Shown here piece after piece: positions 13,155 to 52,718 of a DNA stretch of 64,000 bases (position 1 is its first letter; the number at the start of each line of letters is the position of its first letter). Both the position numbers and the translations under genes were made by a program. Source of the DNA: an uncultured delta proteobacterium (GTDB lineage: Bacteria > Desulfobacterota > Desulfobacteria > Desulfobacterales > UBA2156). A model generated the notes under the pieces. The model saw only the letters and a program-made list of their open reading frames with translations, was not told where the DNA came from and did no database searches. Where the stretch lies: contig CAVTQK010000009.1 in the NCBI GenBank assembly GCA_963736855.1, positions 542,285 to 606,284 on the forward strand, read 5' to 3'.

Positions 13155-13381
13155 AACAAATCCCCCTATGGATTATTAAGGGGTATCAGTGGGTTCTATC
13201 GCCCGTGCTGGGTCCTGCCTGCCGGTTTTACCCTTCCTGCTCGGAATATGCCTACGGAGCGATCAAACGGCACGGTTTTTTTGCCGGATCGATCCTGGCA
13301 GTCAAGAGGGTGTTGCGGTGCCATCCCTGGCACCCGGGTGGCGTTGACCCCGTCCCCGACATACTGGAGACAAAAAGCTAG
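13139..13381 (+). CDS. yidD: membrane protein insertion efficiency factor YidD (start codon unresolved)
   Basis: Frame 2 reads ...[66 protein letters not shown]. No ATG, GTG or TTG occurs in frame between the stop at 13121-13123 and the conserved YQ..SP motif. Confidence 0.75.
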
Positions 13382-13442
13382 GGAGGCGTAACACTCCATC
13401 AAGGTGATCTCTCACCGACGAACCGATAATGAGGTGAACTAA

Positions 13443-20615: not shown

Positions 20616-21092
20616 ATGAAGCAGAAATATCAGATTGTAAAGAAAGCTGATAAAAATAAGATGATTATCCAGGAGTATGCCGAACTGGATAAAGAAGCGA
20701 ATTCGCTTTTATGCGAAGAAACCTATGATATGAAACGGGTGGCAGCCGCAGGGAAGACCGGACGCCAGGCCTTAATGGATATCTTGAGGACCCGAAATTT
20801 CTATCCTAACGGTATCTATACGGAAAAAATTGCCGAGACGGTTATGCAACTACTGTCCTCGACCGATAAGGAAATGGCTGAAATCACCTTCGATGACATG
20901 GAATTGATCTCGCAGGATCGGAGGAAAGAATGGGGCTTGGTGGAGGAGGGTGTTGAGGAGGAAACCCCGGAACTTGATGAACTCCTAGAAGAAGAAATCG
21001 AAGAAGATTACGATAAAGAGGTGCTTAACGGCTACCAGCCTTCGGTTCAAGTGGCCGATGAGGATTCGCTGGAAACCGATGAAGAATCATAA
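20616..21092 (+). CDS. hypothetical protein with strongly acidic C-terminal half
   Basis: 158-aa ORF with an AGGAG-like site upstream (caggagattcctcATG). No family recognised. Confidence 0.5.
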   Translation: MKQKYQIVKKADKNKMIIQEYAELDKEANSLLCEETYDMKRVAAAGKTGRQALMDILRTRNFYPNGIYTEKIAETVMQLLSSTDKEMAEITFDDMELISQDRRKEWGLVEEGVEEETPELDELLEEEIEEDYDKEVLNGYQPSVQVADEDSLETDEES

Positions 21093-21198
21093 GTCGTCCT
21101 TGACATTAAAAAGGGCTTTAATACAAAGCTTCGTGATTAGTTCCACATCCTTTGAAATAAGCTATATTTTATTGCTCTGGAATAAGGGAAAGCGAATT

Positions 21199-22216
21199 TT
21201 GTCGGTAAAGCCTTTATCAAACTCCATCAAGCAGGCACTGATTGATCGATTTAGTCGACGAATGAATTATTTCCGTATCTCCATCACCGATCGCTGTAAT
21301 CTCAGGTGTTTTTACTGCGTTCCAGAAGGTTTTTTCCCCAAATTACCCCACCATGAAATACTATGCTTACGAGGAGATGTTACGTTTGGTCAAGATTGGG
21401 GTTCGCTTAGGAGTTTCAAAAGTGCGTGTAACCGGCGGCGAGCCCCTGGTCAGAAAGGGTGTCTACGGCTTTCTGGAAGCGCTAGGACAGACAGCCGGAC
21501 TGTCCGATGTCTCTTTGACCACCAATGGTGTATTATTGTCTCACCAGATCCACCGGATCCAAAAGGCCGGGATTCGACGCATCAACATCAGTCTGGACAC
21601 GTCGAATCGCGAAAAATATCGAAGAATTACGGGGGTTGATCGTTTCGACGCCGTGTGGGAGGGAATTCGATCGGCGCATGAATCAGGATTTCACCCAATC
21701 AAAATCAACGTGGTGGTTATTCGAGGCGTCAACGATGACGAATTGATGGATCTCGCACGCTTGTCCATTGATCATCCTTATTTCATTCGATTTATCGAGT
21801 ATATGCCCATGGGTGTTCATTGCACGAATATGAATCAGCAAATGCTTGCACCGGAAATTTTGACAAAGATTGAAACTGTCGGTGCCTTGGAGCCTATTTT
21901 CAGAACTAAAAATGACGGACCCGCGGAACGTTACCGGTTCAATGGAGCGGCTGGCGAGATCGGGTTGATCCGGCCCATCAGTCATCATTTCTGCCAGGAT
22001 TGTAACCGGTTGCGTCTTACCGCCAGCGGGCAGCTCCGTGTTTGCTTGTTATCCAAAATCCAAGTGGACCTGAAAGGACCCATGAGAGACGGCGCTACGG
22101 ATGCCGAACTGGCCCAAATGATGAAAGAGGCGGTCCTGCGGAAGCCGCAGGATCACGGATTAAGCTTAAGGAAAGTATCTGCCGTTTTAGACCCGATGTC
22201 TGCCATCGGCGGCTGA
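21199..22216 (+). CDS. moaA: GTP 3',8-cyclase MoaA (molybdenum cofactor biosynthesis); one frameshift near 21364
   Basis: YFRISITDRCNLRCFYC (ORF 21058 frame) continues as (EIL)AYEEMLRLVKIGVRLGVSKVRVTGGEPLVR (ORF 21353 frame). An extra T lies around 21364. TTG 21199 is preceded by AAGGGAA. Confidence 0.85.
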
Positions 22217-25300: not shown

Positions 25301-25421
25301 CTGGCGATGGCCCGACAGCGGCAAAGAGGAAAGTGCGAACCTGCTCACGCCGTCCACCGGTGATCCCAACACCCGGATCCCGGAAACCAAGGCCTTCATG
25401 GTCAACGTGGCCAAAATCTAA
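22364..25421 (+). CDS. fdhA: formate dehydrogenase catalytic subunit, Tat-exported, selenocysteine-containing; three frameshifts in this assembly
   Basis: Tat signal SRREFMQITGATAAGLAV. EHQARI[TGA 22937-22939]HSATVAALAESFGRGAMTNHW is the classic Sec context. Frame changes at a T-run near 23131, an A-run at 23542-23545 and an A/G-run at 24204-24214 rejoin ORFs 22988, 23077, 23567 and 24108. Confidence 0.9.
22940..22990 (+). promoter_or_regulatory. SECIS-like stem-loop region downstream of the fdhA UGA
   Basis: A hairpin can be drawn at 22940-22963 with loop CACGGUU. Folded by hand only. Confidence 0.45.
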
Positions 25422-36675: not shown

Positions 36676-37770
36676 ATGATGCACGTGAATGGTAGAAATG
36701 CCTTCGAAAGTGCGGATCTGGCCGCAAAACTGGCCGGGCAGATCTTCCGGGAGAGTAAGCGACGCGTCAACCTAATGGAGGTCTGCGGGACCCACACCAT
36801 GTCCATATTCAGATCCGGAATCCGTTCGCTTCTCCCGGAATCCATCCGTTTGATATCAGGCCCGGGGTGCCCGGTCTGTGTGACCGACCAGAAAGAGATC
36901 GACACCTTTATGGCTCTGACACAAATCGACGATGTCATCATCACCACCTTCGGGGATCTGGTCCGGGTTCCAGGGACACAAACCTCTCTGCAGGAGGAGC
37001 GGGCAAAAGGGAGGGATATCCGGGTGGTCTATTCCACGATGGACGCTCTTGAGATCGCCGTGAAAAACCCGTTTAAAAATGTGGTGTTCCTGGGAGTCGG
37101 GTTCGAGACGACGGCACCGACGGTTGCCGCTGCGATCCTGGCCGCTGAAAAACAAAAGACGGAAAATTTTTTTGTGGTCTCCGCCCACAAACTGGTGCCC
37201 CCCGCCCTGGAAACGCTTCTTGCATCCGGCACCGTCAAGATCGACGGATTCATCCTGCCGGGGCACGTATCGGTCATCATCGGCAAGAAAGCCTATTTCC
37301 ACGTGGTTCAGGAACACCGGATTCCCAGTGTCATCTGTGGATTTGAGCCGACGGATATCCTCCAGGGGATCCTCATGCTGGTGCGCCAGGTGGAAGCCGG
37401 CAAGGCTGAACTCGAAAACGCCTATACCCGCGTGGTGACCGATGATGGGAATCCCAAGGCCGTTGGGATTCTCCGAGAGGTCTTTGAAACAACGGACGCT
37501 CCTTGGCGGGGTATCGGCATCATCCCGAAAAGCGGGCTTCGGATCCGGAAGGGCTTCGCTCGGTTTGATGCCCAAAAAGCGTTTTCGGTGATGGTCCCCG
37601 AATCGAAGCCCCCCAAAGGGTGCGCCTGCGGCGCAGTCTTGACGGGTGTCCTTACTCCGCCGCAGTGCCCTCTCTTTCGTAAGGTTTGCACCCCGGAGGA
37701 TCCGGTGGGGCCGTGCATGGTTTCCAGCGAAGGGACCTGTGCGGCCTATTATCGGTATCATTTTGATTAG
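36676..37770 (+). CDS. hypD: hydrogenase formation protein HypD
   Basis: MEVCGTHT, GPGCPVCV and C-terminal Cys-rich motifs. ATG 36676 has GGAGCAGG upstream. The ORF-track start 36442 overlaps hypF. Confidence 0.92.
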   Translation: MMHVNGRNAFESADLAAKLAGQIFRESKRRVNLMEVCGTHTMSIFRSGIRSLLPESIRLISGPGCPVCVTDQKEIDTFMALTQIDDVIITTFGDLVRVPGTQTSLQEERAKGRDIRVVYSTMDALEIAVKNPFKNVVFLGVGFETTAPTVAAAILAAEKQKTENFFVVSAHKLVPPALETLLASGTVKIDGFILPGHVSVIIGKKAYFHVVQEHRIPSVICGFEPTDILQGILMLVRQVEAGKAELENAYTRVVTDDGNPKAVGILREVFETTDAPWRGIGIIPKSGLRIRKGFARFDAQKAFSVMVPESKPPKGCACGAVLTGVLTPPQCPLFRKVCTPEDPVGPCMVSSEGTCAAYYRYHFD

Positions 37771-37783
37771 GCGGGACAATGTC

Positions 37784-38413
37784 ATGGAAAAACCCATCTC
37801 CTTTGTTTCCACCGGATTTGAGATCGAGGGACTGCTGGAGATATTTCCTGGAATGCGGGGTGTCGTCGTCACCCATCCGCATCCTTTATACGGCGGAGAG
37901 ATGCGAAACGCTGTCGTGGAGGCGATGCGCCGCGCCTATGCCGAAAGCGGCTTTTCAACCTTGAGGTTCAACTTCCGCGGTGTCGGAAAGAGCCAGGGCC
38001 GCCATAACCAGGGTTTCGGAGAGCAAGACGACATGAGGGCAGCTGTTGCTTATCTGCGGGATATGGGCATCAAACTTGTCCATCTGTGCGGATATTCCTT
38101 CGGTGCGTGGGTTAGCGCTAGGGCGGTGATGTCGGGGCTTTCCATTGAAACCATGGTCATGGTCTCACCCCCGGTGGCGTTTATGGATTTTGAAGGGATG
38201 ACCGGCATTGACGCTCTTCAGTGGGTTCTTGTCGGGGACCGGGACGAGATTGCCCCAATCTCCCGCATTCGGGAGATGATTCCCTCGTGGAACCCCAACG
38301 CTGGACTAGAAATCATTCCCGGCGCCGATCACTTCTTTTCCGGGCAGATGAAAACCCTCGAATCGACATTGCAGCGATGTCTTGAAATCTATTTCCCGCC
38401 TTCTATTCTCTAA
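37784..38413 (+). CDS. alpha/beta hydrolase (small, COG2945-like)
   Basis: VVVTHPHPLYGG, nucleophile elbow CGYSFGAW, C-terminal ...IIPGADHFF. ATG 37784 lies within ORF 37646-38413. Confidence 0.75.
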   Translation: MEKPISFVSTGFEIEGLLEIFPGMRGVVVTHPHPLYGGEMRNAVVEAMRRAYAESGFSTLRFNFRGVGKSQGRHNQGFGEQDDMRAAVAYLRDMGIKLVHLCGYSFGAWVSARAVMSGLSIETMVMVSPPVAFMDFEGMTGIDALQWVLVGDRDEIAPISRIREMIPSWNPNAGLEIIPGADHFFSGQMKTLESTLQRCLEIYFPPSIL

Positions 38414-38450
38414 AGGAAATATTTCGGGAAAAGAACTCACAAAACGTTTT
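38234..38450 (+). repeat. left copy of a roughly 217-bp diverged direct repeat (3' end of the hydrolase gene plus about 37 nt)
   Basis: Aligns by eye with 52502-52718 at roughly 80% identity, including an identical 29-mer CCGATCACTTCTTTTCCGGGCAGATGAAA (38325-38353 and 52595-52623). Confidence 0.8.
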
Positions 38451-38649: not shown

Positions 38650-41090
38650 TTACTTTTTTTCCAGCAGCGCCATGGCCTGAGCAATCTCCTTTTGCGTAAC
38701 GGTTTTACGCAATTGCTCCACGCGGGTCATGACTTCGGCAAAGCGCATGCCTTCGGCGGCGCTGATCCACTCCAGCTGCAGCCGCTCGGGGCGCAGGCCG
38801 CGCTTTTCCATCTTCTTGCGCATCTTGCTCCACGCGCTTGTCGGTCCAGTGGTTGGCATTGATGTAGTGGCAGTCGCCGATATGGCAGCCGCTGACCAGG
38901 ATCACCGGCGCGCCCTTTTTGAAAGCCGTGCCAGATGAAATTCTTCGTCCACCCGGCCCGAGCACATGGTGCGGATCAGGCGGACATTGGGCGGGTACTG
39001 CAGCCGCGAAACACCGGCATAGTCCGCGCCGGCATATGAACACCAGTTGCAGGCAAAGGTGAGAATCTTGTCCGGCGGGTTGTTCGCCAGCATGGCGTCG
39101 ATCTGCTCGTAGATCTGGGCGTCGGTGAAATGGTTCATGGTGATGGCGCCGAAGGGGCACTCGGCTGCGCAGGTGCCGCAGCCGGCTGCAGGCGGCCGTG
39201 GCCACCTGGGCCGGGATCTTCTTCTTGGGGTCCACGGTGATGGCGTTGTAGGGGCACACCTCGGCGCACTTGCCGCAGGCCTTGCACAGCTTCGGATGAC
39301 CTCGGAGGTGATGGCTTCGGCCGTGATCTGGTCGGCCTGCATCAGGCGGATGGCGCGCACCGCCGCGGCCGAGGCCTGGGTGACGCTCTCCTTGATGTCC
39401 TTGGGCCCTTCGGCGCAGCCGGCATAGAATACGCCGCGCGTGGCGGCATCCACGGGCTGCAGCTTGGGATGGGCTTCCAGGAAAAAACCGTCGGAGGTCA
39501 ACTGCAACCCGAGCATCTCCTGCAGCTTCTGGGTGTCGGGGGCCGGTTCGATGCCGATGGCCAGCACCAGCATATCCAGCTCGTAGTATTCAGAGCGCCG
39601 CTGGCCGATGTTCTCCACGGCCACGCGCAGGCTGCCGTCGGGCAGCTCTTCCACATGGCCCGGCAACCCGCGCACATAGTGCACGCCCAGGCGCCGGCTG
39701 CGGGTGTAGAGATCTTCGAACCCTTTGCCGAAGGCGCGGATGTCGATGTAGAAGACCTTGACCTCCATATCCGGGTAGTGCTCCTTGAGCACCAGGGTGC
39801 TTTTGATGGTGTTCATGCAGCAGACGTTGGAGCAGTAGGACTTGCCGCGCCGGGCCGAGCGGGAGCCCACGCATTGGATGAATCCGATGGATTTGGGCGG
39901 CTTGCGGTCCGTGGGGCGCAGCAGATGGCCCTGGGTGGGGCCGCCGGCATTGACCAGACGTTCGAACTCCAGGCTGGTGAGCACGTTTTCAAAGCGGGTG
40001 TAACCGTATTCGTCCAGAATGCGCGGATCATGGGGCGCAAGGCCGGTGGCCACCACGATGGTGCCCACCGCTCGGTCAAGGTCTGATCGGACATGTGAAA
40101 ATCGATGCACTTCTTCTCGCAGGCTTCCAGACATTTGCTGCACACCGCGGGATTGTGGCCCAGGCACTCGTGGGGATTGATCACATAGGCCGACGGCACG
40201 GCCTGGGGAAAGGGCGAGTAAATAGCGCGCCGCGAGGAGAGGCCCAGGTTGAACTCGTCGGGCCGCACCACCGGGCATACCTTGGCGCATTCGCCGCAGG
40301 CGGTGCACTCCTTTTCATCGACATAGCGGGCCTTTTTGACGATCTGAACGTCGAAGTTGCCCACATAGCCTTTGACATCCACCACTTCGCTCATGGTGTG
40401 AATCTTGATCCGGGGATGCCGACCGGCATCCGTCATCTTCGGACCCAGGATTCAGATGGAGCAGTCCATGGTGGGAAAGGTCTTGTCCAGCTGGGCCATG
40501 ACGCCGCCGATGGAGGGCTGCTTTTCCACCAGCACCACTTCATAGCCGTTGTCGGCCATGTCCAGGGCCGACTGGATGCCGGCGACGCCGCCGCCGATCA
40601 CCAGGGCGCGCTGGGTCATGGGCATCTTGGCCTCGGTCAGCGGCTTGCAGGCGGCGCACACGGGCAACGGCCATCTTCACCAGATCCAGGGCCTTGACGG
40701 TGGCGGCCTGCGGTTCCTTCATGTGGACCCAGCTGCACTGCTCGCGCAGGTTGGCCATCTCCAGCAGATAGGGATTGAGGCCGGCGGCTGACCAGCATCT
40801 GGCGAAAGGTGGGCTCGTGCAGCCGCGGCGAGCAGGAAGCCGATCACGATGCGGTTCAGACCGTTGGTTTCAATGTCTTCGCGGATTTCGCGCTGGCCCG
40901 GTTCGCTGCACGCATAGCCGATGCCCTTGGCCACGACCACATCGGGCAGACTGGGCCGCCTGCGGCCGCTACGCCGTCGCAATCCACGGTCTGGGCGATG
41001 TTCAGGCCGCAGTGGCACACATAGACGCCGATGCGGGGCTCGTTCGCTGGAGGCTGCGCCGGGTTTGATAGAAGTAATTGGCAGTGTCAT
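38650..41090 (-). pseudogene. hdrA: heterodisulfide reductase subunit A fused to an MvhD domain; Sec codon plus at least 8 frameshifts in this assembly
   Basis: Traced across frames: MTLPIT..EPRIGVYVCHCGLNIAQ.. VVVAKGIGYACSEPGQ.. [10 protein letters not shown].. [12 protein letters not shown].. [20 protein letters not shown].. [11 protein letters not shown][TGA]ILGPKM.. FIQCVGSRS.. C-terminal Mvh[35 protein letters not shown]. Confidence 0.8.
40415..40430 (-). promoter_or_regulatory. SECIS-like hairpin 21 nt downstream of the hdrA UGA
   Basis: The minus strand reads GATGCC-GGTC-GGCATC (perfect 6-bp stem, GGUC loop) after TGA 40454-40452. Confidence 0.6.
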
Positions 41091-41243
41091 GGTGCGTTCC
41101 TTTTTAAAATTATCCACTATTTTTCGTGGATCTTCTTTTTCTAAATTCTAAATTCGAATTTCGACACTCAAAACAGATAAGAAATCCGAATGATTCAATG
41201 CTCAAAACGCGAACAGAAAATAATCAGCCTGTCCCTCTCTTCT

Positions 41244-42836
41244 TCATGCCCAATAAATGCTTTTCGCGATAACACTGGTCAAATCCATCATCTCCATCTT
41301 CAGCGCCTTGCCCTTGCATCGGCATCTTCCATGGCGCAGCGCAGGTGGATCTGGCATTTGGGACAGGCGGTGATCATGGATCCGCCGCCGGTTTCGCGTG
41401 GCGCGTTCAGGCGCTGGACCTGCATGCTTTTGCTGAAGGCATCGCAGCCGATCCAGGCGCTGTTGCCGCAGCAGACGCTGGCCGCGTCGCTGTCCGCCAG
41501 CAGTTGGGGGTCGGTCCGCGCACAGACTGCTTGAGCAGTTTGCGCGGCAAGGCGGCCTGGCCGTTGAAACGGCTCTGGCGGCAGGCATCCTGAAACGTGA
41601 CCGTGCGTCTCCAGGGGTTTGAAGGCCACGGCGCCCTTGTCGATTTCGCGCTCCAGGTATTCGTGGATGTGGGTGACCTTGACCGGCAGTGTAATGCCGT
41701 AACGCGCATACTCCTGGCTCAAGGTGTGATAGCATTCAGGGCAGGCCGTGATTACCTCTTGGGCGCCGCTTTCCGCGATGGCCTGGGCATTGAGCCGGGC
41801 CAGGCGCATGAAATTGGCCTGGTCCCCGGACCAGAGCAGATCGTGGCCGCAGCAGCGCTCGTTTTCCAGAACAATCGGTTCCACATCGAAGAAGTTGAGC
41901 AGGCGCAGGCTGTCTTCCAAGATCTGCTGGGTGTGCACGCCCAGGAATTTGCGGAAGAAGATGTCGAAATAGGCCGCGCAACCGCCGAAGAATAGAATGG
42001 GGCTTTGCTTGCGCACGCGGATGTTATCGGGCAAATGCAGCCAGCGCCGGGGTACAAGGCTCTCGGCGGTCATGGCGCGCATGATGCTTTGAAAGAATCC
42101 GCCGTGCGCCGGCGCAGCGGTGATCTCTCGGCTGTGGTAGTAACTGCGCATCTCCTTGATGAATTCCGGAAAGTTGACCGCCGACGGGCAGCGTTCGTAG
42201 CAGATGCCGCAGGTCAGGCAAGCATTGACCGCGGCGCGCACCTCGGGCCGGTCCGCGCGGCCGGCGATGATTTCAGCGGCAACGAAACGAGGCGAAAAAG
42301 GCTTTCCGGCCAGGGCCAGGGGGCAGGCCGACGTGCATTTGCCGCAGTCCTGGCAGGCGAAGACATCATGGGCTGCAATGATGGCTTCGGAGCTGGCCGG
42401 CACCTCGGCCGGTTCCCAGGAAGAGGCGGCTGGTACCGAAATAGGACTTATACCCATTTGGCGCACCCGCTCGGTAAAGTGCTTTGAGAAAAGCCAGCAG
42501 CTGTCCGGGCTGATCGGGCAGGAAGTTGCCCAGTTGCAGTCGCTCTTGTCCAATGCCCATCAATTCCAGGATCTGGCGCGTATCTTCGGTATTCTCGCGA
42601 GCTGCTTCGGTGCCGGTGCCGTAGCGGCAGGAACCGGGTTGGCAGCCCAGAACGATAACGCCGTCGGCGCCCATCTCAAAGGGCTTGAACAGCAGGGCCT
42701 TGGTGATGCGTCCGCTGCACGGAATGCGCACCATTTTGATTTCCAGGGGAATATCGGCGCGCTGCTCCTGCAACTGTCTGATAGGCCACGTGGGGTCCCC
42801 AGTTGCACAAAAACAGGATAATTTTGAACTCTTGCA
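41244..42836 (-). pseudogene. MvhD-like domain followed by HdrC/HdrB-like module (2x[4Fe-4S] plus two CCG domains); several frameshifts; gene boundary unresolved
   Basis: MQEFKIILFLCNWGPH..IKMVRIPCSGRI..VLGCQPGSCRY (MvhD-like); CQDCGKCTSACP and CLTCGICYERCP (HdrC-like); ERCCGHD and VCCGNSAW..ITACPKC (CCG/HdrB-like). AGGAG precedes ATG 42836. Confidence 0.7.
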
Positions 42837-42841
42837 TAGTA

Positions 42842-45800
42842 TCAGCTCCTGGCCGCAGGGCGCGAGCAGCTCCACCAGGGTCTGTTCCAGGTAGGCCTGG
42901 TCGCGGAAGGGGCTGTCCGCCGCATTGGACGGGCAGACCGAGATACAGTTGCCGCACCCCTTGCACAAGACATCGTCCACCACGGCGGTAAGATGCCGTT
43001 GGCACCATTGGTTTTGAGGCTCACGGCCTGGTAGGGACAGGCTTTCAGACAGCGTCCGCAACCCCGGCATAGCGCTTCATTGATCACTACTGAAAAGCCC
43101 CGGCTTTGGCGCGGTCCCCTGGGCATGGCGGCGGCGGCCAGCATGGCCGCAGCTTCGCCCTTGGAGCGCTTGGAGATTTGGATGCCGGGCGGATCGGCCA
43201 GGAAAAGACCGGAGATGGAGGTGCTGCACGGATACATGAAAGGAATGTCCGGGACCCCCTCTTTCTGCATACGGGCCTGTACCCGCATGCCGGGCAGGTC
43301 GGCATGGGGATGGTAGATGGCGATATTGCGCGACTTTTCACCCAGAATGACTCCACCCACGGTGAAGACCCGCTCGGCGCCGTCGCAAAGGGCATGGATC
43401 TGGAAATTGCCGATGGTGCCGCTGACCGCCGCCACAGTGGAGCCGTTAAAAGCAAAGATCGACGGGTGGTCCGGTGTCTGGCTGAGAGGATTTGTAGCTG
43501 ATCCGAACAGCAACACATCGAAACCCGCCTGGGCCAAGGTCTGGGCGGCGCTGGTGGCGGCCTCGGTCTGGCCGATCACGGCGGTGGTGAAGTTGTAGCC
43601 CCGGGCTGGCGCGGGAAAGGGCAGCAGTTTGCGGGCTCGTCCGATGCTGCGGGTCACGATCCCTTTAAAGAGCCGCACGGCAAGAGCTTCATCCTGGACT
43701 ATGTGGCGCAGCACTTCGCCCCGCACATTAACAGTTTGCACCATGGAGCGGCTGATGCCGGTGCCGTCAAAGAGGCCCCGCTTGAGACGGCTGCGCTGGT
43801 CCGTGCAGGCGCTGCACACGAAGTTGAGCGGACAGCAGACGCACGAGGCGATCACCAGGCGGGTCAATCCTTTGTCGCGCACACTGTCCACAATGCGATG
43901 GATGCCGTCGGGAATACAGGCCGAAACCAGCACTTCGGTGTGCACGATGTCGGGTTGCCGGTTCAGTTCATTTAAGTAGCTATCCAACTCGGCGGACCAG
44001 CCAAAGGAGTCGTTGCAGCGGCAGGCAAATACGCCGATGCGGATATTCTTGTCCAGGCTGGTCTCAGGAGGCACAAAGACCATGCCCTGGCCCTTGATGC
44101 GCATGCCATTGCGTTGTAGCAGCACCATGGCCCGGGCCGCGGCTGCATAGCCGCGCAGCATCATGGCGTAGACGTCGGGTTTGGCGCTGGGCGGGCCATA
44201 GGCCCGGATCACATCATCGCCCTTGATCTCCGGGGCCAGGTCGCGGGTCCGCCACGATCACCACGCCCGCATTTTCGAAAGTTGTCTCCACGGTCTGGTC
44301 GTGGCGAATGGCCTGATTGGCCGCGCAGGCCGGCACGCAGGCCAGGCACTGGGCGCAGCCACCGCACTGCAGGCAGCGCTTGGCTTCGGCTTGGGCCTGG
44401 GCTTCGTCCAGTCCCAGAGCCACTTCGGTAAAACCAGAGCGGCGCTGGTCCGGGGGAAGCTCAGGCATCCGGGTGCGCGGCTGAAACGGCAGATCCGCGG
44501 CAATGGACTCGAAATCCCGATCCAGGGGCCGGATAGCGGCAGGCCGAATCTGGCGAAAATCCTCGCCGGTAAGATCATGCATCACCTGCCAGGCGACCTT
44601 GCGTCCGTCCGCCATGGCCTGGACCACTGAGGTGGCGCCGCTGACCGCATCGCCGGCCGCGTAGATGCCTTCGCAGGGTTGTGCGGCCATGCCCATCCAC
44701 GGCCAGCAGCCCCAGGTCCGTGATAGCCAGACTGTCTTGGCCGCGCATCACGCCATATGCGCCGGCCTGGCCGATGGCCACAAAAGCGCGCTCGAAATGG
44801 ATCTCCTCCTTGGGACTGTCGGGCACTATCACGGGCCAGCAAATACCCTTGGCATCCGCCGGCACCCGGCTGGGTGGCCCGCACCAGCAGCCCTTGCAGC
44901 ACGCCGTTGGCGCCTTGAAACCCCACTACCTGGCGCCGGTCCAGGATGGTGATGCCCTCGGCCAGGGCGGCCTCGACTTCGTCCGCATCCGCTGGGATTT
45001 CGCTTTGGGCAAACCAGGATATGATGGTCACGGCCGCTCCCAGGCGGCGCAATACGCGGGCCAGATCTAAGGCCGCATTGCCGTCGCCTATGACCGCCAC
45101 TTGACCGCTCTGCTCGTGCGCCTCACCGCGATAAAACCGGTTTAAAAAGGCCACGCACCCCTCGACACCGGCCAGGGTCTCGCCCTCGACCCCCAACCGC
45201 CGGTCAGCCCACGAACCCGTGGTAACAATCACGGCCTGGTGGTTCTTGCGTAGTTCAGCCAGCCCCTGGGGCAAGGCCACGGCATGGTTGGTGACGATTT
45301 TAACGCCCTCGGCCTGGATGGCGGTGATTTCAGCATCCAGTATATCCCGGGGCAGCCGGTGGGGACCGATGCCGTAGCGCAGCAAGCCGCCGACCTCGCT
45401 CTCTTTTTCAAAGATCGTCACCCCAAATCCCTGGCGTGCCAGGTCAGCCGCGGCCGCCAAACCAGCAGGACCCGAGCCGATCACGGCAATGCGCTCGGCG
45501 CGAGCAGGCGGGTCATTGGCCAGCCGAGGGGTTTTGAGGGCCGCGGCTTGGTCGGCTACAAAGCGTTTAATGTCGCGGATGGCCAAGGCCTCATCTTTTT
45601 CACCGCGCCGGCAGGCGGCCTCGCAGGGATGGGTGCAGATGCGGCCGCACACCGCGGGCAGCACATTGTTCCTGCCGGATCAGATCCAGGGCCTCTGAAT
45701 AGCGGCCGGCCGCGGTCAGGGCCATATAGCCTTGCACATTGACGCCCAAGGGGCAGTTGGCCTGGCACAAGGGCTCGCGCCGTTTGTCGATAACGGCCCG

Positions 45801-46228
45801 GCCCGGCAAGGCCATGCGGCCGATGGTTTGGATGGGGCGCATGATTCCCGAGCCCGCACACAGGGCACGCTTCGGCGCACCGGCCGCACAAGGTGCAGCG
45901 CTTGGCATCCACATAGGTGGGGATCGGATCGATCTGGACTCTGAACCCTTGCTGGCTGTGCTTGATTGAACGGATCTGTGGCCGGCAGAAGGCAGCGGAT
46001 ATTGCCGTTGCGCAGGATGCGGATCAGGCCGGGACGGTGGGCGAAATTGAACGGCACGCCGGAGTCGAGGCGGTACGGCTCGGCGCTCAATTTTTGATCC
46101 AGGTCCGCATCGATATCCACCATGGTAATAGGGACGCCCAACTCGCCCAGCTTGTTGGCCGCAGCCACGCCAGCCGGATTGGCGCCGATGATCAGCACGC
46201 TATGCAATCTGTTCTTGGCTTTTTTCAT
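42842..46228 (-). pseudogene. HdrL-like large flavoprotein (HdrA-like plus GltD/NfnB-like NAD(P)H module plus ferredoxin domains); at least 7 frameshifts
   Basis: VLIIGANPAGVAAANKLG; CTLCGRCAEACP; CPLGVNVQGY..LPAVCGRICTHPCEAAC; VIGSGPAGLAAAADLA; GIYAAGDAVSG; CVCCPLNFVCSAC; CRGCGRCLKACP; CKGCGNCISVCP. Its ATG overlaps the upstream stop (ATGA at 46225-46228). Confidence 0.7.
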
Positions 46229-46801
46229 GCCACTACTCCAACTTGACCGGCGGCCTTGTGCCGACGGCCCTTTAGGGTGGCCTGGGCAAACTCCCAGCCC
46301 CGCTCAAAGGCCTTGAGATTGGTCTGCACCGTGGCCTTGGGCACGGATTTGGCCACCGTGTCGCGGGCCGCATCCATGGAAACCGCTCCGGTGACAGCGG
46401 TCAGGAACCCGATCATGATGATGTTGGCCATCATTTTATTGCCCAGCTCCTCGGCAAAGCGAGTGCAGGGAATGGCGAAGTGATCCCGCTCCTCCGGAGC
46501 CTTGACCAGATCCTGCTCGATGATCAGCATGCCGTCGGCCTTGAGCGTGGCAAACTGCTTGTCAAAGCCGGACTGGGACATGCACACCAGGATATCGGGA
46601 TTCTGAATATAGGGAAAATAGATCGGACCGTCGGCAATGGTTACCTGGGCGCTGCACGCACCGCCCCGGGATTCAGGACCATAGGATTGCACCAGGGTGC
46701 TCTCCAGTTTGTCGCACAATGGCTGCGGCCTGGCCCAAGATGCGTCCCGCCAGCACAACCCCCTGCCCGCCGAAACCGGTGATGGTTATTTGTTTAAACA
46801 T
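46225..46801 (-). CDS. 2-oxoacid:ferredoxin oxidoreductase gamma subunit; one frameshift near 46735
   Basis: MFKQITITGFGGQGVVLAGRILGQAAA joins ...LVQSYGPESRGGACSAQVTI... Confidence 0.8.
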
Positions 46802-46826
46802 ATTACGTTCCCATGTTGGCCGGAGT

Positions 46827-47696
46827 TTAGGTCTTAAGTGAAGGTGTTCCATTATGCGGTAACCTGCATGTCTTATCGTAATTCTCGATGCAGGTAGGCC
46901 GCTGCTTGTCCACAAACTCTCCCAGCACCACCTTTTTGCTGAAATCCACCTCCAGGTCGCTGGGGTCGGTATGGTTGCGGATAATGGTTTGCTCTTGATA
47001 AAGCTTGAGGGTCTGCAATGGCTTTTCCTTGTTGCGCCGGCCATAGTTGACCGGACAAGGACCCAACACCTCGATAAAGGAAAAACCGCTTTTCAAAATA
47101 GCCTTTTGAATACACTGGGTCAGCTCCCGGATGTGCAGGATGGTCCAGCGCGCCACATAGGTGGCGCCCGCGGCCCAGGCCAGCAGCGGCAGGTTGAAGG
47201 GCGCCTCGGGATTGCCCGCCGGTGTGGTAGTGGTGCGCGCCAAAAAGGGCGTGGTGGACGCCACTTGGCCGCCGGTCATGCCGTAGTTCAGATTGTTCAG
47301 GCAGATCACGGTGAGATCCATGTTGCGCCGGGCCGCATGAATGAAATGATTGCCACCGATGGCAAACAGATCGCCGTCTCCGCTGAACACCACCACATTG
47401 AGCTTGGGATTGCCCAGTTTGAGTCCCGTGGCAAAGGGAATGGCCCGGCCGTGGGTGGTATGAAACGAATCGAGCTTGACGTAGCCTGCTGCCCGGCCCG
47501 AGCAGCCAATCCCCGAGACCATGCACATGTTGCGCAGATCGGTCCCGCTGGCCTTCATGGCCGATAAGCAGGCGGCAAAGGCGGTACCGATGCCACATCC
47601 CGGACACCAGATATGAGGAATGCGATCGGAGCGGATTAGATCCTCCAGGGGATGGTCAGGCACCACAGCCTCTCTGGCACGGACGGTTACGGGCAT
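46827..47696 (-). CDS. 2-oxoacid:ferredoxin oxidoreductase beta subunit (TPP-binding)
   Basis: HIWCPGCGIG...SGIGCSGR...FSGDGDLFAIGGNHFIHAARRN. Start taken at MPVTVRARE. Confidence 0.88.
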   Translation of the reverse strand: MPVTVRAREAVVPDHPLEDLIRSDRIPHIWCPGCGIGTAFAACLSAMKASGTDLRNMCMVSGIGCSGRAAGYVKLDSFHTTHGRAIPFATGLKLGNPKLNVVVFSGDGDLFAIGGNHFIHAARRNMDLTVICLNNLNYGMTGGQVASTTPFLARTTTTPAGNPEAPFNLPLLAWAAGATYVARWTILHIRELTQCIQKAILKSGFSFIEVLGPCPVNYGRRNKEKPLQTLKLYQEQTIIRNHTDPSDLEVDFSKKVVLGEFVDKQRPTCIENYDKTCRLPHNGTPSLKT

Positions 47697-48843
47697 GGGA
47701 ACACCTCCTTCATTTTGGCGATCACCTGATCCGGTGTGATGATGGCGCCGCCGTGGTGGCCCACCAGGTGGCAAGGCACTCGGCCGGCCGCGGCGCGGGT
47801 CACCTCCAGGTGAATCTGTCCCAGGTTGATCTCCACGGTGACGAACGCCTTGACCCTCTCGGCCAGCGTCCGGATCTGTTTTTCGGCAAAGGGCCAGACC
47901 GTGATCAGGCGCAGGAAGCCCACCTTCAGCCCCATGGCGCGCGCCTGCTGCATGGCCGCCATGCTGGTGCGCGCCGAGATGCCGTAGGATACCAGCACGA
48001 TCTCGGCATCCTCCAGGTTATGGCCCTCGGTCATGATGATATCGTCGCGGTTGTCCAGAATTTTGCGTTTCAGTGCGCAGTCATCATCTCCTGCTGGGCC
48101 TCCACCGACATCACCGGGTAACCCTTTTCGTCGTGGGTCAGACCGGTGACATGCACGTTGTACCCTTCGCCGGCCGCCGGCATGGGGGCCACGCCGTTGG
48201 GTCCCGGCTTATAGAGTAGGAAGCGGTCCTTGCGGCCCTGGGGCTTGGGACGCCACTCGGTTTGAATATGCTCGGCCGGTGGAATGACCACCTTTTCGCT
48301 CATGTGGCCGACGATTTCGTCGGTCATGATGAAGACCGGCGTGCGGTAGCGTTCGCTCAGGTTGAAGGCCGTGATGGTCTGATAAAAAATCTCCTGGGCC
48401 GAGGCCGGCGCCAGGGCGATGATCTCGTAGTCGCCGTGGGATCCCCAGCGCACCTGCATCATGTCGGCCTGGGCGCCCATGGTGGGCAGGCCGGTGGACG
48501 GCCCGGCGCGCTGCACATTGACTATTACGCAGGGGGTTTCGGTGCAGACTGCCAGCCCGATGTTTTCCATCATCAGGCTGAAGCCCGGCCCGGAGGTGGC
48601 GGTCATGCTCTTCTGGCCCGCCCAGGCCGCCCCCAGAACCGAGGCAATGGCTGCGATTTCGTCCTCCATCTGGATGAAGGTGCCGCCCACCTCGGGCAGC
48701 CGCTCGGACATATGTTCGGCGATCTCGGTGGCCGGTGTGATGGGATAGCCCCCGAAAAAGAGGCATCCGGCTGCCAAGGCCCCCTCGGCGCACGCCTCGT
48801 CGCCGGTCATGAAGTGTTCGCCCGTTAGAATCGCTGGTTTCAT
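47687..48843 (-). CDS. 2-oxoacid:ferredoxin oxidoreductase alpha subunit; one frameshift near 48070
   Basis: GDEACAEGALAAGCLFFGGYPITPATEI...TATSGPGFSLMMENIG joins ...DAEIVLVSYGISARTSMAAMQQARAMGLKVGFLRLITVWPF. Confidence 0.85.
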
Positions 48844-48996
48844 GATGTTTCCGTTTTAGTTATTTGGGTGTAATTTTTTGGCAGTTGTGTTTTCCGTCTC
48901 CTTCGGACGTTCAAAGCAATCCGCGACCTTCAATCTATCCACCTAACTTGAAATCGGCAGAATATCTTGATCTAAAACCTAAAACGAGATTCCCAA

Positions 48997-49284
48997 TTAT
49001 GCCGCTCTCTCTTCCCCACTTTTTGACGCAGGTATCTCAACAGAGTATATCGCAAACTCAGGGCAGATAATTTCGCAGTAGTGGCAATTGACACACCCCT
49101 CTGGCTGAATCACCTCGGGCGGATGATACCCCTTTTTATTGAAGCGGGAAGAAAAGGCCAGAATCTTCTTGGGGCAGAACTCGATACAATAGCCGCAACC
49201 CTTGCAGCGATCCTCGATAATGTGAACCACACCCTGGGAAATCTTAATTGCATTCGAATCAAATGGCACGCGCCAGTATTCCAT
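48997..49284 (-). CDS. 2-oxoacid:ferredoxin oxidoreductase delta subunit (2x[4Fe-4S] ferredoxin)
   Basis: MEYWRVPF...CKGCGYCIEFCP...CVNCHYCEIICP. GGGGAGA RBS lies before ATG 49284. The ORF-track start 49401 is probably upstream read-through. Confidence 0.8.
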   Translation of the reverse strand: MEYWRVPFDSNAIKISQGVVHIIEDRCKGCGYCIEFCPKKILAFSSRFNKKGYHPPEVIQPEGCVNCHYCEIICPEFAIYSVEIPASKSGEERAA

Positions 49285-49786
49285 AGCTCTCTCCCCATTT
49301 CGCCGGTACCTCAAGCCAAGTCCACCGCATAAAAGATCCAATATGCTGAATAAACGATAGTCTTGTATTTTACGGTGCGTCCGAATCAGCCGGCTATGCA
49401 TATATCAACGCATAGCAGACATCAATATTATTTTAGAGTGGTGATGAGAATCTTCGGGAGACCCCTTTATTTTTTTATGGGGGGTCCCCAAGTAGTTTTA
49501 AGAAGTGGGTTTGAGTGATCTGACCCCCTGTTTCTGAATTTATGTCCGGGAAGTTGGATTGAATTACGCGACATGATAGGACGAGATGTAGTCCGGGATT
49601 GTGGGGGGATTGCTTAGGCCATTAGTAATGGGAAAAAGGGTCGCAGAATGGAACAATCCTGTTCTCTCCATCCTTGAGCCCCAAGTATGGAAACGACCCC
49701 GGCTTCAAGGTATTCATGATTTACCGGTATTGATACCCACGTAGCCAAGCCGAAGGCCTCCGGAAAAAGCAAGCGCCTTCGACGGC

Positions 49787-50299
49787 TTACTGCATGGTTT
49801 TGCGTTTCTCTTCAAGCTGGATATCCAGAAGCTTGAGCTTTTCTATAATATTTTTATGGTACAGGTTTTGCTGCTTCAAATCGTCGGCCCGTTGTTTAAG
49901 TTTTATGTTTTGCTGCCCCAGGGCCTCACCGCTGACGGCCCGGGCATCAAGCTGCTTTAAGAGAGACACCGCGTAGCGCGCATCCACCGACTCTTCAATT
50001 CCGGCATAGACCTCCATGTAAGAGATGGCTTTCTTATAGTCGGGGGATTGGTTCTCGGGATGCGAATGGAGTATGACCAGTAGAAAAAGGAGCCGTACCT
50101 TTTCCTCAGGTTTTACCGTCTGGGCCAGGTTCTGTTCGAGCCGGACGATCTCGCTCGAGATCATCCCCTTATCCACCGTTGGATAGGGCTCGGTCCTGGA
50201 TTGTATACGGGGGGCGCAGCCATCCAATAGTAGAGGGGCTGCGACGATCAGCAGTCCTAAAAAAAGCATCCCGAAACGGATATTTCTCTCCTGCCCCAT
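49787..50299 (-). CDS. lipoprotein with coiled-coil C-terminus
   Basis: MGQERNIRFGMLFLGLLIVAAPLLLDGC lipobox. Starts 20 nt after the stop of the GGDEF gene. Confidence 0.65.
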   Translation of the reverse strand: MGQERNIRFGMLFLGLLIVAAPLLLDGCAPRIQSRTEPYPTVDKGMISSEIVRLEQNLAQTVKPEEKVRLLFLLVILHSHPENQSPDYKKAISYMEVYAGIEESVDARYAVSLLKQLDARAVSGEALGQQNIKLKQRADDLKQQNLYHKNIIEKLKLLDIQLEEKRKTMQ

Positions 50300-50318
50300 T
50301 AACAGTTCCTGCAAACGA

Positions 50319-51707
50319 TCAATCGGGGTCGTTTTCCCGGCGATCCACCAGAAAGAGGCTGCCCGGAATGGTCTTGGCATACTCCTTAATTTCTGCCGCA
50401 ACCTCCCCGATCTTCACGCTGCTGATAGATCTCTGGTTCGTATTTATCACAACAGCAATGGAAATAGTCATGATGGGAAACTGCTCTGCATTTCCCTGCC
50501 GCGTCTTGGATGTTATATAACCTCTCGCCCTGTCTTCGGGATCATAGAACTCACCGACCTTTTTATCGAACATATCGATAATGGTTTGGCAGACAGGCCG
50601 GTATCGGTCCGGATGAACGATGATGGCAAAGTCGTCGCCGCCGATATGGCCTAAAAAGGCATTTTCATCTCCGTGCTCGGCAATGGCCGTCTCCAGAATT
50701 TTTCCTGTGCCCCTGATGACCTCATTGCCACGGGCATAACCATATCGGTCATTAAAAGATTTGAAGTTATCGATATCCACCAGGCAGAAGGCAAGTGCCT
50801 GCCTCTCCTTGAGCCGGGCATTCAGCACATTCTCTATGGCGATGCCGCCGGGCAGGCGGGTCAGTGGGCTGGCGTCTAAATCCATCATCTCCAGCCTTGC
50901 CAGCTTCTGGGCCATGGCGATAAAGGATTTGGCCAGCATTCCAAACTCGTCTTTCTGCTTGAGATCTGGAATAAAATCAAACTGCCGTTCAGAAAATTTT
51001 TCCGCGGCCAGTTTGAGCTGTCTAATGGAGCGCGACATGTTGCGCGTGATCAAATAAGCCGATCCGATGCCGATACAGATACCCAGGACCGACAACAGAG
51101 CTGCCACATGAAAGGCCCGTATGCTCGATATGTCGCTCTGCCTTGTCTTTTTCAACAGTCCGGCCCGTGCATCCTGGGCCATGACCTTGATGAGGTCAAA
51201 CTGGTCATCCAGGCTCTGCCGAAGCTGACCATCATAAACGGTGCTGGCTTTGTCAAGGGCACTTTTCGGAAGATTGAAAATCTCCATATAAAATGCATTA
51301 AACGTACCGTGCCGGGTCTCCAGCTCCTTGACGAGAGCTGCATCCAGTCCATCCACTTGACCCAGAACCTTTAGGGTATCTTCAATCTTGAAGCTTCGTG
51401 CCCAAAAGAGGTCCTTCATTTCATCACTTTTCATGATCAGGTAGCGACGGCCATAGGCCTCCTGGGCCAGCAGATCCTGGGTCATACTGTCCGCCGCCTC
51501 GATCACCACCATGTTATTGGCTACGATACTGCGGCTGATATTGCCCAGTTCGTTCAAGGTGGAAAGCGTATAGACCAATATCAGGATGATAATAACAGAC
51601 AGGGGAAGATAGGCAAGGGCCATTCGGGTAGCGATGGTCAACCCTAAAAAGCGGTCTACGATCCGGTTTTTAACATTAAAAAACAATGGCAATCGAATTG
51701 TATTCAT
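50319..51707 (-). CDS. membrane sensor protein with HAMP-like linker and GGDEF-family domain (GGDDF variant)
   Basis: Two TM segments flank a periplasmic region. PLTRLPGG..., CLVDIDNFKSFNDRYGYARGNEVI, GHIGGDDFAII. Confidence 0.8.
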   Translation of the reverse strand: MNTIRLPLFFNVKNRIVDRFLGLTIATRMALAYLPLSVIIILILVYTLSTLNELGNISRSIVANNMVVIEAADSMTQDLLAQEAYGRRYLIMKSDEMKDLFWARSFKIEDTLKVLGQVDGLDAALVKELETRHGTFNAFYMEIFNLPKSALDKASTVYDGQLRQSLDDQFDLIKVMAQDARAGLLKKTRQSDISSIRAFHVAALLSVLGICIGIGSAYLITRNMSRSIRQLKLAAEKFSERQFDFIPDLKQKDEFGMLAKSFIAMAQKLARLEMMDLDASPLTRLPGGIAIENVLNARLKERQALAFCLVDIDNFKSFNDRYGYARGNEVIRGTGKILETAIAEHGDENAFLGHIGGDDFAIIVHPDRYRPVCQTIIDMFDKKVGEFYDPEDRARGYITSKTRQGNAEQFPIMTISIAVVINTNQRSISSVKIGEVAAEIKEYAKTIPGSLFLVDRRENDPD

Positions 51708-52027
51708 GGGCGTTTATATCAGTCTGAAAAGCCGGCATCCCTGGTTTTTTGCTTGATCCGATTGCTGATGTTGAATGTTCTTCTTTTTATTAAACCTGAA
51801 AGTATAGAAATTTTCAAGCCTTTCATGGGCGGAGAACGACATGATTTCCCTGATCCGATTTGTCCCCTGGATGCTTTCTTTTGGATAACACCGGGCGAAA
51901 TTGGAACAGTGGGCCATGTTCAAATCATCAAAAATATCAATATGATGTCCGATAAATTCCGTTTGACATGAGATCTTCCTCCAGATCGCTACTGTCCCAA
52001 CATTATTCAAATAATTTCAATTGGTTA

Positions 52028-52320
52028 TCAGCTAGTAAATTTTGATTTATGTAAGGCATCTCTGTGAATGCTTATAAAATGGGCGTTTTTCTCTAATAGA
52101 GTCACGCTCAGAATCTGTAAAATGGTGTAGACGCTTTGATTCAATTTGAGAAGCTTTTTCACAATTGCGACCAGCACATAAACCCAGAGGTTACTGTTCA
52201 CCTACGATATGGAGGTGGCCAAATGAGCAAGCTGAAGATCCCTGAGCCGGATCTCCAGATCACTTTCTATCGTTGATTGGACAATGGTGGGTGTTGCACA
52301 ACTTGACTTGGATTTGGCTA
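52028..52320 (-). pseudogene. DDE transposase C-terminal remnant (IS4-family-like)
   Basis: The minus frame reads NLWVYVLVAIVKKLLKLNQSVYTILQILSVTLLEK(T/N).., resembling the conserved C-terminus of IS4-type transposases as I recall it. The upstream part is degenerate with stops. Confidence 0.35.
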
Positions 52321-52501
52321 GACGAGAGTCGCCCACAACGGACCGCTTTTACCGCATTGATGAAATTGCCGATTCGTCCTCCGATGAAGCAAAGGATTTT
52401 CGTGAAAATCTTCTGTCACGAATAGGTATCCGGGCTTAACCGATAACCCGGATATTTCACGAGTTGATTTGGTTTTAATTGCAGAGCGCCCGAAATGAAT
52501 A

Positions 52502-52718
52502 GGGGACGGTGACGAGATTGCCTCCACCTCCCGCGTTCGATAGATGTTTCCCTCGTGGAACCCCAAAGCCGGACTATAGAAATCATCCCCGGCACCGATC
52601 ACTTCTTTTCCGGGCAGATGAAAGTCCTCGAATCGGCATTGCGGCGACATCTTGAAGTTGGTCTTTCACCATCTTTTCCCTAAAGGAAATGCTTCGACGA
52701 AAAACTCACGAGATTTTG
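52502..52718 (+). pseudogene. right copy of the direct repeat: decayed duplicate of the hydrolase gene 3' end
   Basis: GDGDEIAS..R*MFPSWNPKAGL(frameshift)..PGTDHFFSGQMKVLES.. compared with the intact GDRDEIAP..REMIPSWNPNAGLEIIPGADHFFSGQMKTLES. Contains a TAG and a 1-nt insertion. Confidence 0.75.

Follow-up and report, generated by a model that had tools for sequence, protein, structure and literature searches.

A predicted seven-gene operon joining a 2-oxoacid:ferredoxin oxidoreductase to a heterodisulfide reductase-like module on a probable genomic island of an uncultured delta proteobacterium

Introduction

Here we examine a stretch of 64,000 nucleotides (nt) from an uncultured delta proteobacterium of the Desulfobacterota (G000:C9:542285-606284; assembly of 3.9 Mb in 25 contigs), which we call the window, and within it a cluster of seven minus-strand genes at positions 38650-49284. 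The cluster encodes a four-subunit 2-oxoacid:ferredoxin oxidoreductase (Kor) and, behind it, a flavoprotein of the HdrL kind with a heterodisulfide reductase-like (Hdr) module. An earlier reading of the bare sequence, referred to below as the original prediction, had laid out these genes and proposed that they encode a dedicated system that bifurcates or confurcates electrons among ferredoxin, NAD(P)H and a thiol/disulfide pair. We follow up that proposal with domain scans, ortholog alignments, a survey of related loci and an analysis of the many frameshifts that interrupt the genes.

Results

Layout of the locus

The seven genes follow one another as korD, korA, korB, korG, hdrL, a fusion of mvhD with hdrC and hdrB (mvhD-hdrCB), and an hdrA fused to mvhD that contains a selenocysteine (Sec) codon. 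This order, starting from korD at 49284, was claimed in the original prediction and is present as described, with each assignment backed by Pfam and NCBIfam scans and by direct reading.

48997..49284, minus strand: korD, delta subunit with 2x[4Fe-4S]; intact, ATG at 49284 and TAA at 48999..48997; Fer4 families
47687..48843, minus strand: korA, alpha subunit; POR_N (1.8e-73) and PFOR_II (1.5e-21) in two frames; one frameshift near 48074
46827..47696, minus strand: korB, beta subunit, binding thiamine pyrophosphate (TPP); TPP_enzyme_C (4.3e-33); intact, no frameshift
46225..46801, minus strand: korG, gamma subunit; ATG at 46801; POR domain (7.8e-28); one frameshift near 46717
42842..46228, minus strand: gene of an HdrL-like flavoprotein, about 1125 amino acids (aa) after frame correction; eight frameshifts
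41244..42837, minus strand: mvhD-hdrC-hdrB fusion; FlpD, Fer4_17 and CCG; ATG at 42837; five frameshifts
41091..41243, minus strand: spacer between mvhD-hdrCB and hdrA, 153 nt, guanine-cytosine (GC) fraction 0.35, by direct reading
38650..41090, minus strand: hdrA fused to mvhD, predicted selenoprotein; ATG at 41090; HdrA2 model and C-terminal FlpD; ten frameshifts

The stop codon of korG overlaps the start of hdrL in an ATGA at 46228..46225, and the start of mvhD-hdrCB is preceded by AGGAGCTGATACT-ATG. Both junctions had been proposed before, as an ATGA overlap of gamma and HdrL at 46225-46228, which we read directly, and as an AGGAG-ATG ahead of the MvhD/HdrCB unit, which is present with its ATG at 42837; the AT-rich spacer given earlier as some 150 bp is the one of 153 nt. 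The fusion of a Sec-containing HdrA to MvhD is recovered from the in-frame TGA, a hairpin of the selenocysteine insertion sequence (SECIS) type and the C-terminal FlpD domain. The HdrL of roughly 1100 aa stands as to its domains and length, though only as a conceptual reading across eight frame changes. A promoter and terminator scan of the operon gave counts at chance level. Judged from its sequence, the stretch 38650-49284 reads as a self-contained seven-gene operon, a single conserved co-directional unit.

The Kor enzyme and the Hdr module

The first four genes make up a complete enzyme of the KorDABG type, with an alpha subunit of POR_N and PFOR_II domains, a TPP-binding beta subunit, a gamma subunit with a POR domain and a delta subunit with two [4Fe-4S] clusters. 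The N-terminal 257 aa of KorA alone score 429.8 bits against NF006412 (2-oxoacid:acceptor oxidoreductase alpha subunit), above its cut-off of 411. Among known structures KorA is nearest to those of the KGOR/OGOR type (1yd7 at 1e-112, then 8ys5 and 6n2n), and PFOR lies far off at 1e-13. For korD the best NCBIfam matches are OGOR_delta and OorD, both below threshold (OGOR_delta 62 against a cut-off of 125). A PadH-like relationship (NAD-reducing phenylglyoxylate oxidoreductase) is conceivable; it is not among the top NCBIfam matches.

HdrL is a mosaic. A first stretch (residues 9-127) corresponds to positions 140-259 of HdrA. Residues 151-630 find their matches in NfnB, the Stn large subunit (StnC) and GltD at E values of 1e-60 to 1e-82, and the C-terminal part matches the N-terminal domain of HdrA and then the C-terminal dicluster (2x[4Fe-4S]) domain; both Rossmann motifs are without variation among orthologs. 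The protein thereby has the make-up by which HdrL was defined (Strittmatter et al. 2009), an HdrA-like protein fused to a GltD-like NAD(P)H-binding part with an MvhD-coding gene behind it. In HdrL orthologs (for example L098:5063-8437) the arrangement reads as that of a permuted HdrA, in which HdrA 140-259 is followed by the NfnB-like insert and then by HdrA 1-168 and 518-628, and a second Rossmann-like stretch (VIGxSEAA) is without the GxGxxG motif.

The next gene encodes an MvhD [2Fe-2S] domain, an HdrC-like dicluster domain and CCG, with matches to MvhD and HdrC in the PDB. A dicluster domain followed by two CCG domains is the layout of HdrBC; one CCG domain was recognised in the largest fragment of the window's gene, and L098, the nearest ortholog without breaks, has two CCG stretches. 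In NCBIfam this fusion comes closest to TfrB (thiol:fumarate reductase subunit B), LdhH and GlpC, each with a score under its cut-off. HdrA matches residues 134-314 of the structure 5odc_A over 186 residues at E 4.6e-72 and, like the solved enzyme, carries a ferredoxin domain inserted into a flavin adenine dinucleotide (FAD) domain of the thioredoxin-reductase kind. A 468-aa fragment of it scores 507 bits against NF040770 (HdrA2), where the cut-off is 1100 and the gene is split by ten frameshifts and the Sec codon.

A predicted selenocysteine in HdrA

40452..40454, minus strand: selenocysteine codon TGA, in-frame in hdrA
40414..40431, minus strand: SECIS-type hairpin GGATGCC-GGTC-GGCATCC, 20 nt downstream of the TGA

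The TGA is kept in all 62 sequences in which the motif was found, the window and 61 orthologs, and its position, when read as cysteine, aligns with Cys197 of 5odc_A. In orthologs the hairpin also occurs as GGATGTC...GACATCC, a compensatory change from C:G to U:A on both sides of the stem, which passes through an Ala/Val change on one side and a synonymous Arg codon on the other. The genome encodes tRNA-Sec as well as selB, the latter above its curated cut-off. In its sequence, then, hdrA has the properties of a bacterial selenoprotein gene, and the predicted Sec would replace the equivalent of Cys197.

Distribution and conservation of the block

A pattern search built on the HdrL alignment found 447 stretches encoding a relative, and 80 loci were kept. 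In about 70 of the 80, korD-A-B-G, hdrL, mvhD-hdrCB and hdrA stand in the same order, the exceptions being mostly contig ends. These loci carry labels of the Desulfobacterales, the Syntrophobacterales (Desulforhabdus, Syntrophobacter), the Desulfatiglandales, the Syntrophales and a sulfate-reducing bacterium of an ethane consortium, and the block is intact in same-order relatives, including G016, G025, G026, G028 and G030. The synteny survey that the original prediction had called for thus returns a strict gene order widespread in Desulfobacterota loci, where synteny unique to this strain had been named as grounds for giving the proposal up. Of 301 genomes that sample the phylum evenly, this one included, 14 carry an HdrL ortholog. 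A same-length paralog (about 1130 aa, 31-37% identical over the full length) was seen in 13 further genomes of the sample, for example at G088:C10:213284-216583 and in G261, G290 and G308.

The coupling of korG to hdrL is conserved too. In 76 of 77 loci no more than 30 nt separate the two genes, and in 42 they share the ATGA overlap, which makes this junction tighter than those within kor; the gap between hdrCB and hdrA varies, with a median of 71 nt. Around the block, no flanking gene family is common to more than 7 of about 65 loci, and none of these loci offered conserved neighbours that would hint at the substrate. Since no flanking family is widely shared, the block is autonomous, and it behaves as a mobile unit that moves whole between genomes. 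In the closest relative (L098) toxin-antitoxin genes lie to either side of the block (377-1166 and 12920-14083; PhdYeFM antitoxin, PIN, RHH), which fits a mobile context there too.

An island between direct repeats

In the window, the operon lies in a segment of 14.27 kb between two direct repeats of 195 nt that are 83-85% identical (repeat families D1 and D2).

38234..38426, plus strand: left direct repeat and left island border; it is the 3' end of the alpha/beta-hydrolase gene at 37646..38413, which is intact
52502..52696, plus strand: right direct repeat and right island border; a degenerate second copy of the 3' end of the hydrolase gene, interrupted by stops and a frame change
49285..52501, no strand assigned: rest of the island, GC 0.48; the minus-strand frames 49787..50401 and 50319..51707 look unbroken

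The left repeat is 79% identical to the corresponding end of the hydrolase gene in relatives. In one genome of the same genus (G001) the hydrolase and the gene on the right flank are 203 nt apart, an empty site, and in another (G004) they are 1.3 kb apart. In a third (G003) about 21 kb lie between the two (G003:C14:1010816-1033294, of which the locus L104 covers part), and the 3' end of the hydrolase may be a recurrent integration spot for different cargo. No integrase was identified for the island.

The composition of the operon is foreign as well. The block has a GC fraction of 0.62 (cluster range 0.60-0.64), and with the exception of korD its genes span 0.58-0.64. The genome stands at 0.52 and the flanks at 0.53-0.54, whereas the corresponding clusters of Desulfatitalea have 0.60-0.63. 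KorB is 86-90% identical to Desulfatitalea proteins, and HdrL is 74% identical to the protein of D. tepidiphila and its sister, with which it forms a three-member clade of 100% support in the Shimodaira-Hasegawa-like approximate likelihood ratio test (SH-aLRT). Bracketing repeats, an empty site in relatives, foreign composition and foreign phylogeny are the marks of a genomic island, and together the repeats, the empty sites, the GC and the kinship with Desulfatitalea point to arrival of the Kor-HdrL-Hdr block in this genome by horizontal transfer. Among five genomes of the same genus only one (G005) has an ortholog, on a contig of 3846 nt (L016, G005:C139); it groups with sequences labelled Syntrophobacteraceae and may be an independent acquisition or a mis-binned contig.

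Twenty-five frameshifts

Frameshift-aware alignment of the intact orthologs of the relative G028 to the window's DNA gives 24 frame changes and not a single in-frame stop over about 10.2 kb. A twenty-fifth lies at the C-terminus of HdrL near 42850-42868, where comparison with the two closest relatives requires it for the ARS-TGA end that they have in common; it is the eighth of hdrL. By gene the counts are none in korD, one in korA, none in korB, one in korG, eight in hdrL, five in mvhD-hdrCB and ten in hdrA, placed by the ortholog alignment as follows.

45976, 45855, 45671, 44863, 44670, 44240 and 42990, minus strand: frameshifts of hdrL (the seven mapped)
42771, 42482, 41605, 41516 and 41316, minus strand: frameshifts of mvhD-hdrCB
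40962, 40838, 40783, 40644, 40066, 39287, 39184, 38940, 38915 and 38827, minus strand: frameshifts of hdrA

Sixteen of the 25 amount to one extra base, five to a gain of two bases (or the loss of one), and the remainder to missing bases. No motif is shared around them and few fall in homopolymers; the nearest relatives, 76-83% identical in DNA, are too distant for exact placement of the extra bases. Once the frames are corrected, 768 of the 776 positions at which 56-80 orthologs never differ keep their residue, which falls inside the range of 94-100% seen when intact orthologs are left out singly. In the HdrL tree the terminal branch of the window is 0.24, against 0.26 for its intact sister from Desulfatitalea tepidiphila.

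The rest of the window, 53 kb, contains only about two split genes. They are moaA (radical SAM and Mob_synth_C; 21058-22216, plus strand), apparently split between overlapping frames, and a molybdopterin oxidoreductase gene like fdh (22364-25421, plus strand), apparently split as well and with a possible Sec TGA near 23550. A Viterbi scan of codon usage, trained on the genome itself, ranks the 10-kb stretch of the operon as the third most frameshift-dense of the genome. Such a scan calls too many frameshifts where GC is very high, so that its counts across the genome serve as a rough ranking; small contigs show 3-8 frameshift-like events per 10 kb.

Genes elsewhere in the assembly are broken too. 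The essential gene ileS lies in two frames on C14:46913-49403, with a second partial ileS on a small contig (C3:21939-23489), and a dnaE-like gene (C21:590474-592883) and a copy of tuf (C6:75422-76301) are split. From these split genes and the second partial ileS it follows that the assembly has indel errors and probably redundant contigs.

The 25 frameshifts are most likely local indel errors of the assembly, because the residues are kept, there is no nonsense codon, the branch is normal and genes that must be functional have indels as well. In the living organism the operon is probably unbroken.

Error driven by GC content was considered as the cause and is weakened, since a tract of 72% GC on C15 is much less broken and since korA and hdrA differ at equal GC; a simple GC-dependent artefact does not fit a density that varies at equal GC and a C15 tract that is mostly unbroken. 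That tract, the terminal 60 kb or so of the contig (C15 about 730000-790000), has 70-73% GC in a genome of 52% and resembles foreign DNA, a chimeric join or contamination. In the 16 kb examined (L102, C15:741000-757000) it holds intact AcrB, DcuA and AMP-binding genes and one clearly split gene, for a lyase of the aspartase/fumarase type.

Discussion

The explanation that we consider best for these observations jointly, at a probability of about 60%, is that a conserved operon sits on an acquired island, that its Kor enzyme is wired to electron bifurcation or confurcation by the Hdr module, and that the frameshifts are mostly assembly errors. By analogy with Mvh-Hdr and Flx-Hdr, HdrL would take the place that the hydrogenase has in the methanogen Mvh-Hdr complex, that of the electron-input module. 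Its NfnB/GltD-like part would trade hydride with NAD(P)(H), the MvhD domains would act as wires carrying electrons to the flavin of HdrA, and this flavin would be the bifurcation point at which electrons are split or joined. The high-potential branch would lead to the HdrCB-like CCG unit, acting on a disulfide that is most plausibly of the DsrC type, while the low-potential branch would run through the clusters of KorD to or from the 2-oxoacid:ferredoxin oxidoreductase. Such a complex would link NAD(P)(H) and a thiol/disulfide pair to a 2-oxoacid that is oxidised or an acyl-CoA that is reductively carboxylated, perhaps without free ferredoxin. It could work in either direction in vivo: as 2-oxoacid oxidation, or as reductive carboxylation that NAD(P)H drives and the reduction of the disulfide pulls. 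Of the bifurcating system claimed in the original prediction, the expected parts are in place, namely an HdrL whose residues 151-630 resemble NfnB, StnC and GltD, an HdrA close to 5odc_A, and two CCG domains in an ortholog. The gene dsrA is present in 13 of the 14 carriers of the HdrL ortholog against 155 of the 301 genomes of the phylum sample, where related genomes are not independent, and this co-occurrence fits a partner of the DsrC type.

Several observations weigh against this explanation. One carrier, G064, which is 97% complete, has no match to dsrA, so DsrC is not a universal partner. No fusion of KorG to HdrL was found, and a long open frame in G293 that had been a candidate for one was rejected, as it is not a fusion. 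The NCBIfam models specific for 2-oxoglutarate all score below cut-off (NF007206 288 against 579, NF007207 234 against 364, the alpha score being computed on a fragment of KorA). The density of frameshifts climbs from 0.9 per kb in korA (GC 0.634) to 4.1 per kb in hdrA (GC 0.63), and this local burst ends sharply at the left border of the island. Finally, the corresponding cluster of Syntrophobacter fumaroxidans, named 'HdrAL/POR', was detected in none of the proteomes of the study that named it (PMC5947623).

The burst is what a decaying array of pseudogenes might leave behind, if the island had lost selection after its horizontal acquisition and the 25 frameshifts were true mutations. Frameshifts are some 60 times as dense in the operon as in the remaining 53 kb, the operon ranks third genome-wide in the self-trained codon scan, the burst halts at the left island border with the flanking hydrolase gene and hypD intact, the island shows further decay in its broken copy of the hydrolase 3' end, and high GC by itself leaves genes unbroken in this assembly. 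However, about 10.2 kb without a nonsense codon, 99% of the ortholog-invariant residues kept and a terminal branch on par with that of the intact sister speak against decay. From the invariant residues, neutral divergence since inactivation is estimated at no more than about 0.8%, which would put the ratio of indels to substitutions at about 0.3 or above. Bacterial pseudogenes generally show a deletion bias, and the frameshifts here have a 2:1 bias toward insertions, opposite to that norm; essential genes are frameshifted in this assembly too. We consider decay improbable. The original prediction had named true pseudogenes as one way in which it could fail: the frameshifts do exist, and the kept residues, the lack of stops and the branch length make decay an unlikely account of them.

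Kor and the Hdr module might also be separate enzymes that are co-transcribed and linked only through the pool of free ferredoxin, which Kor would reduce or draw on, with HdrL-Hdr working on its own as an NAD(P)H:ferredoxin:disulfide oxidoreductase like Flx-Hdr. Kor does have a ferredoxin-like delta subunit of its own, the usual exit to free ferredoxin; HdrL-MvhD-Hdr modules without kor exist in D. autotrophicum and S. fumaroxidans; 13 further sampled genomes have the HdrL paralog of equal length (31-37% identity); and a Kor-HdrL fusion protein was not seen. Yet no junction of the cluster is tighter or better conserved than that of korG and hdrL, the block is inherited and transferred whole, as the agreement between the nearest relatives of KorB and of HdrL indicates, and the flanks share nothing else conserved, so that we rate this arrangement as somewhat unlikely. 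At the other end stands a single supercomplex of all seven proteins, in which flavin-based bifurcation of the HdrA/HdrL type would pass the high-potential electron of NAD(P)H to a DsrC-type disulfide and the low-potential one directly via KorD to the 2-oxoacid enzyme, without free ferredoxin. This version in full is unlikely; were it true, the supercomplex would drive the reductive carboxylation of acyl-CoA and would be a bacterial counterpart, mobile among sulfate reducers, of the methanogen supercomplex of Hdr and formylmethanofuran dehydrogenase. It is also conceivable that the CCG unit does not act on a thiol or disulfide, that the complex reduces or oxidises another substrate, like other CCG proteins, and that 'heterodisulfide reductase-like' describes a fold only. 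The sub-threshold best matches of the fusion to TfrB, LdhH and GlpC and the one carrier without dsrA (G064) lean that way, while the two CCG domains behind an HdrC-like dicluster domain, as in HdrBC, a partner HdrA very close to the methanogen enzyme and dsrA in 13 of 14 carriers lean against it, and we hold it to be quite doubtful.

Parts of this picture have precedents. The 'HdrAL/POR' cluster of S. fumaroxidans (Sfum_0012-0018; Sedano-Nunez et al. 2018, PMC5947623) likewise has HdrA and HdrL beside a 2-oxoacid:ferredoxin oxidoreductase, there called a pyruvate enzyme, in seven locus tags. Loci labelled Syntrophobacter and Desulforhabdus (L081 and L070) carry the present block gene for gene, and Sfum_0012-0018 is probably this block. 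The label 'POR' may be a misnomer, because KorA here is nearer to the KGOR/OGOR type than to PFOR. In Ca. Endoriftia persephone a four-subunit OGOR lies between hdrA and hdrBC of a putative flavin-based bifurcating Hdr-Flx complex and is co-expressed with genes of the reductive tricarboxylic acid (rTCA) cycle (Mitchell et al. 2024, PMC11636981). The model cited there has electrons of NADH pass to OGOR directly or via reduced ferredoxin and a protein like DsrC. In that sulfur-oxidising gammaproteobacterium Flx is the NADH input and the cluster sits among rTCA, tfrAB and pntAB genes, whereas here HdrL serves as the input, MvhD domains are fused to HdrCB and to a Sec-containing HdrA, and genes of carbon pathways are unlinked. 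The original prediction was in doubt whether its arrangement had been characterised; it has been named (PMC5947623), and a Kor-Hdr-Flx variant of it is co-expressed (PMC11636981). Our literature search found no biochemical study of the Kor-HdrL-Hdr arrangement, and reviews of HdrA(BC) may cover more.

HdrL itself was defined, as HdrL1-3, in Desulfobacterium autotrophicum HRM2 (Strittmatter et al. 2009, PMC2702500). These proteins and the HdrABC/HdrL of S. fumaroxidans (Sfum_0819-0824) are, like the one here, fusions of an HdrA-like part with a part like the small subunit of glutamate synthase, followed by an MvhD-coding gene, but their loci are linked to dsr or fdh and not to kor; in D. autotrophicum HdrL1 and HdrL3 are the selenoproteins, and here Sec is predicted in HdrA, not HdrL. 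Likeness to NfnAB and StnABC (PDB 5JCA, 4YLF, 8OH5, 9N5U) lies in HdrL residues 151-630, a module that here has no NfnA partner and sits in a rearranged HdrA scaffold. The methanogen MvhAGD-HdrABC complex (PDB 5ODC, 8RVU, 7BKB) and the HdrA2B2C2 of Methanosarcina share HdrA, MvhD, HdrC and two CCG domains with the present system, and the HdrA-MvhD fusion here matches the HdrA2 model best. Unlike them, it has no hydrogenase, formate dehydrogenase or F420 module, contains HdrL in addition and has HdrC and HdrB fused behind a second MvhD; coenzyme M (CoM) and coenzyme B (CoB) are not expected in these bacteria.

The comparison drawn in the original prediction was with FlxABCD-HdrABC of Desulfovibrio, reportedly described in D. 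vulgaris by Ramos and colleagues in 2015. The comparison holds for the proposed logic, in which NAD(P)H, ferredoxin and a DsrC-type disulfide would meet at the flavin of HdrA, and not for the parts: the Pfam and NCBIfam scans found no Flx-type protein among the seven cluster genes, the NAD(P)H site would be in the NfnB-like module of HdrL, and Kor is encoded in the operon. An Hdr-type bifurcating complex with a dedicated partner enzyme is already known as a kind, and what is new here is the HdrL input, the MvhD-HdrCB fusion and the Sec-containing HdrA.

Specific to this genome are the position of the block on an acquired island and the dense run of frameshifts, for which the quality of the assembly is the most likely reason. 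The operon probably functions in the organism and is mis-assembled here, and in automated annotation it will show up as a series of pseudogenes. It is unsettled how sulfate reducers and syntrophs obtain electrons of very low potential for the synthesis of 2-oxoacids, or shed them when 2-oxoacids are oxidised. A conserved and mobile operon that joins a 2-oxoacid enzyme to an Hdr-type bifurcating module is a concrete candidate for this role, and its cultured carriers can be named: Desulfatitalea tepidiphila and Syntrophobacter fumaroxidans.

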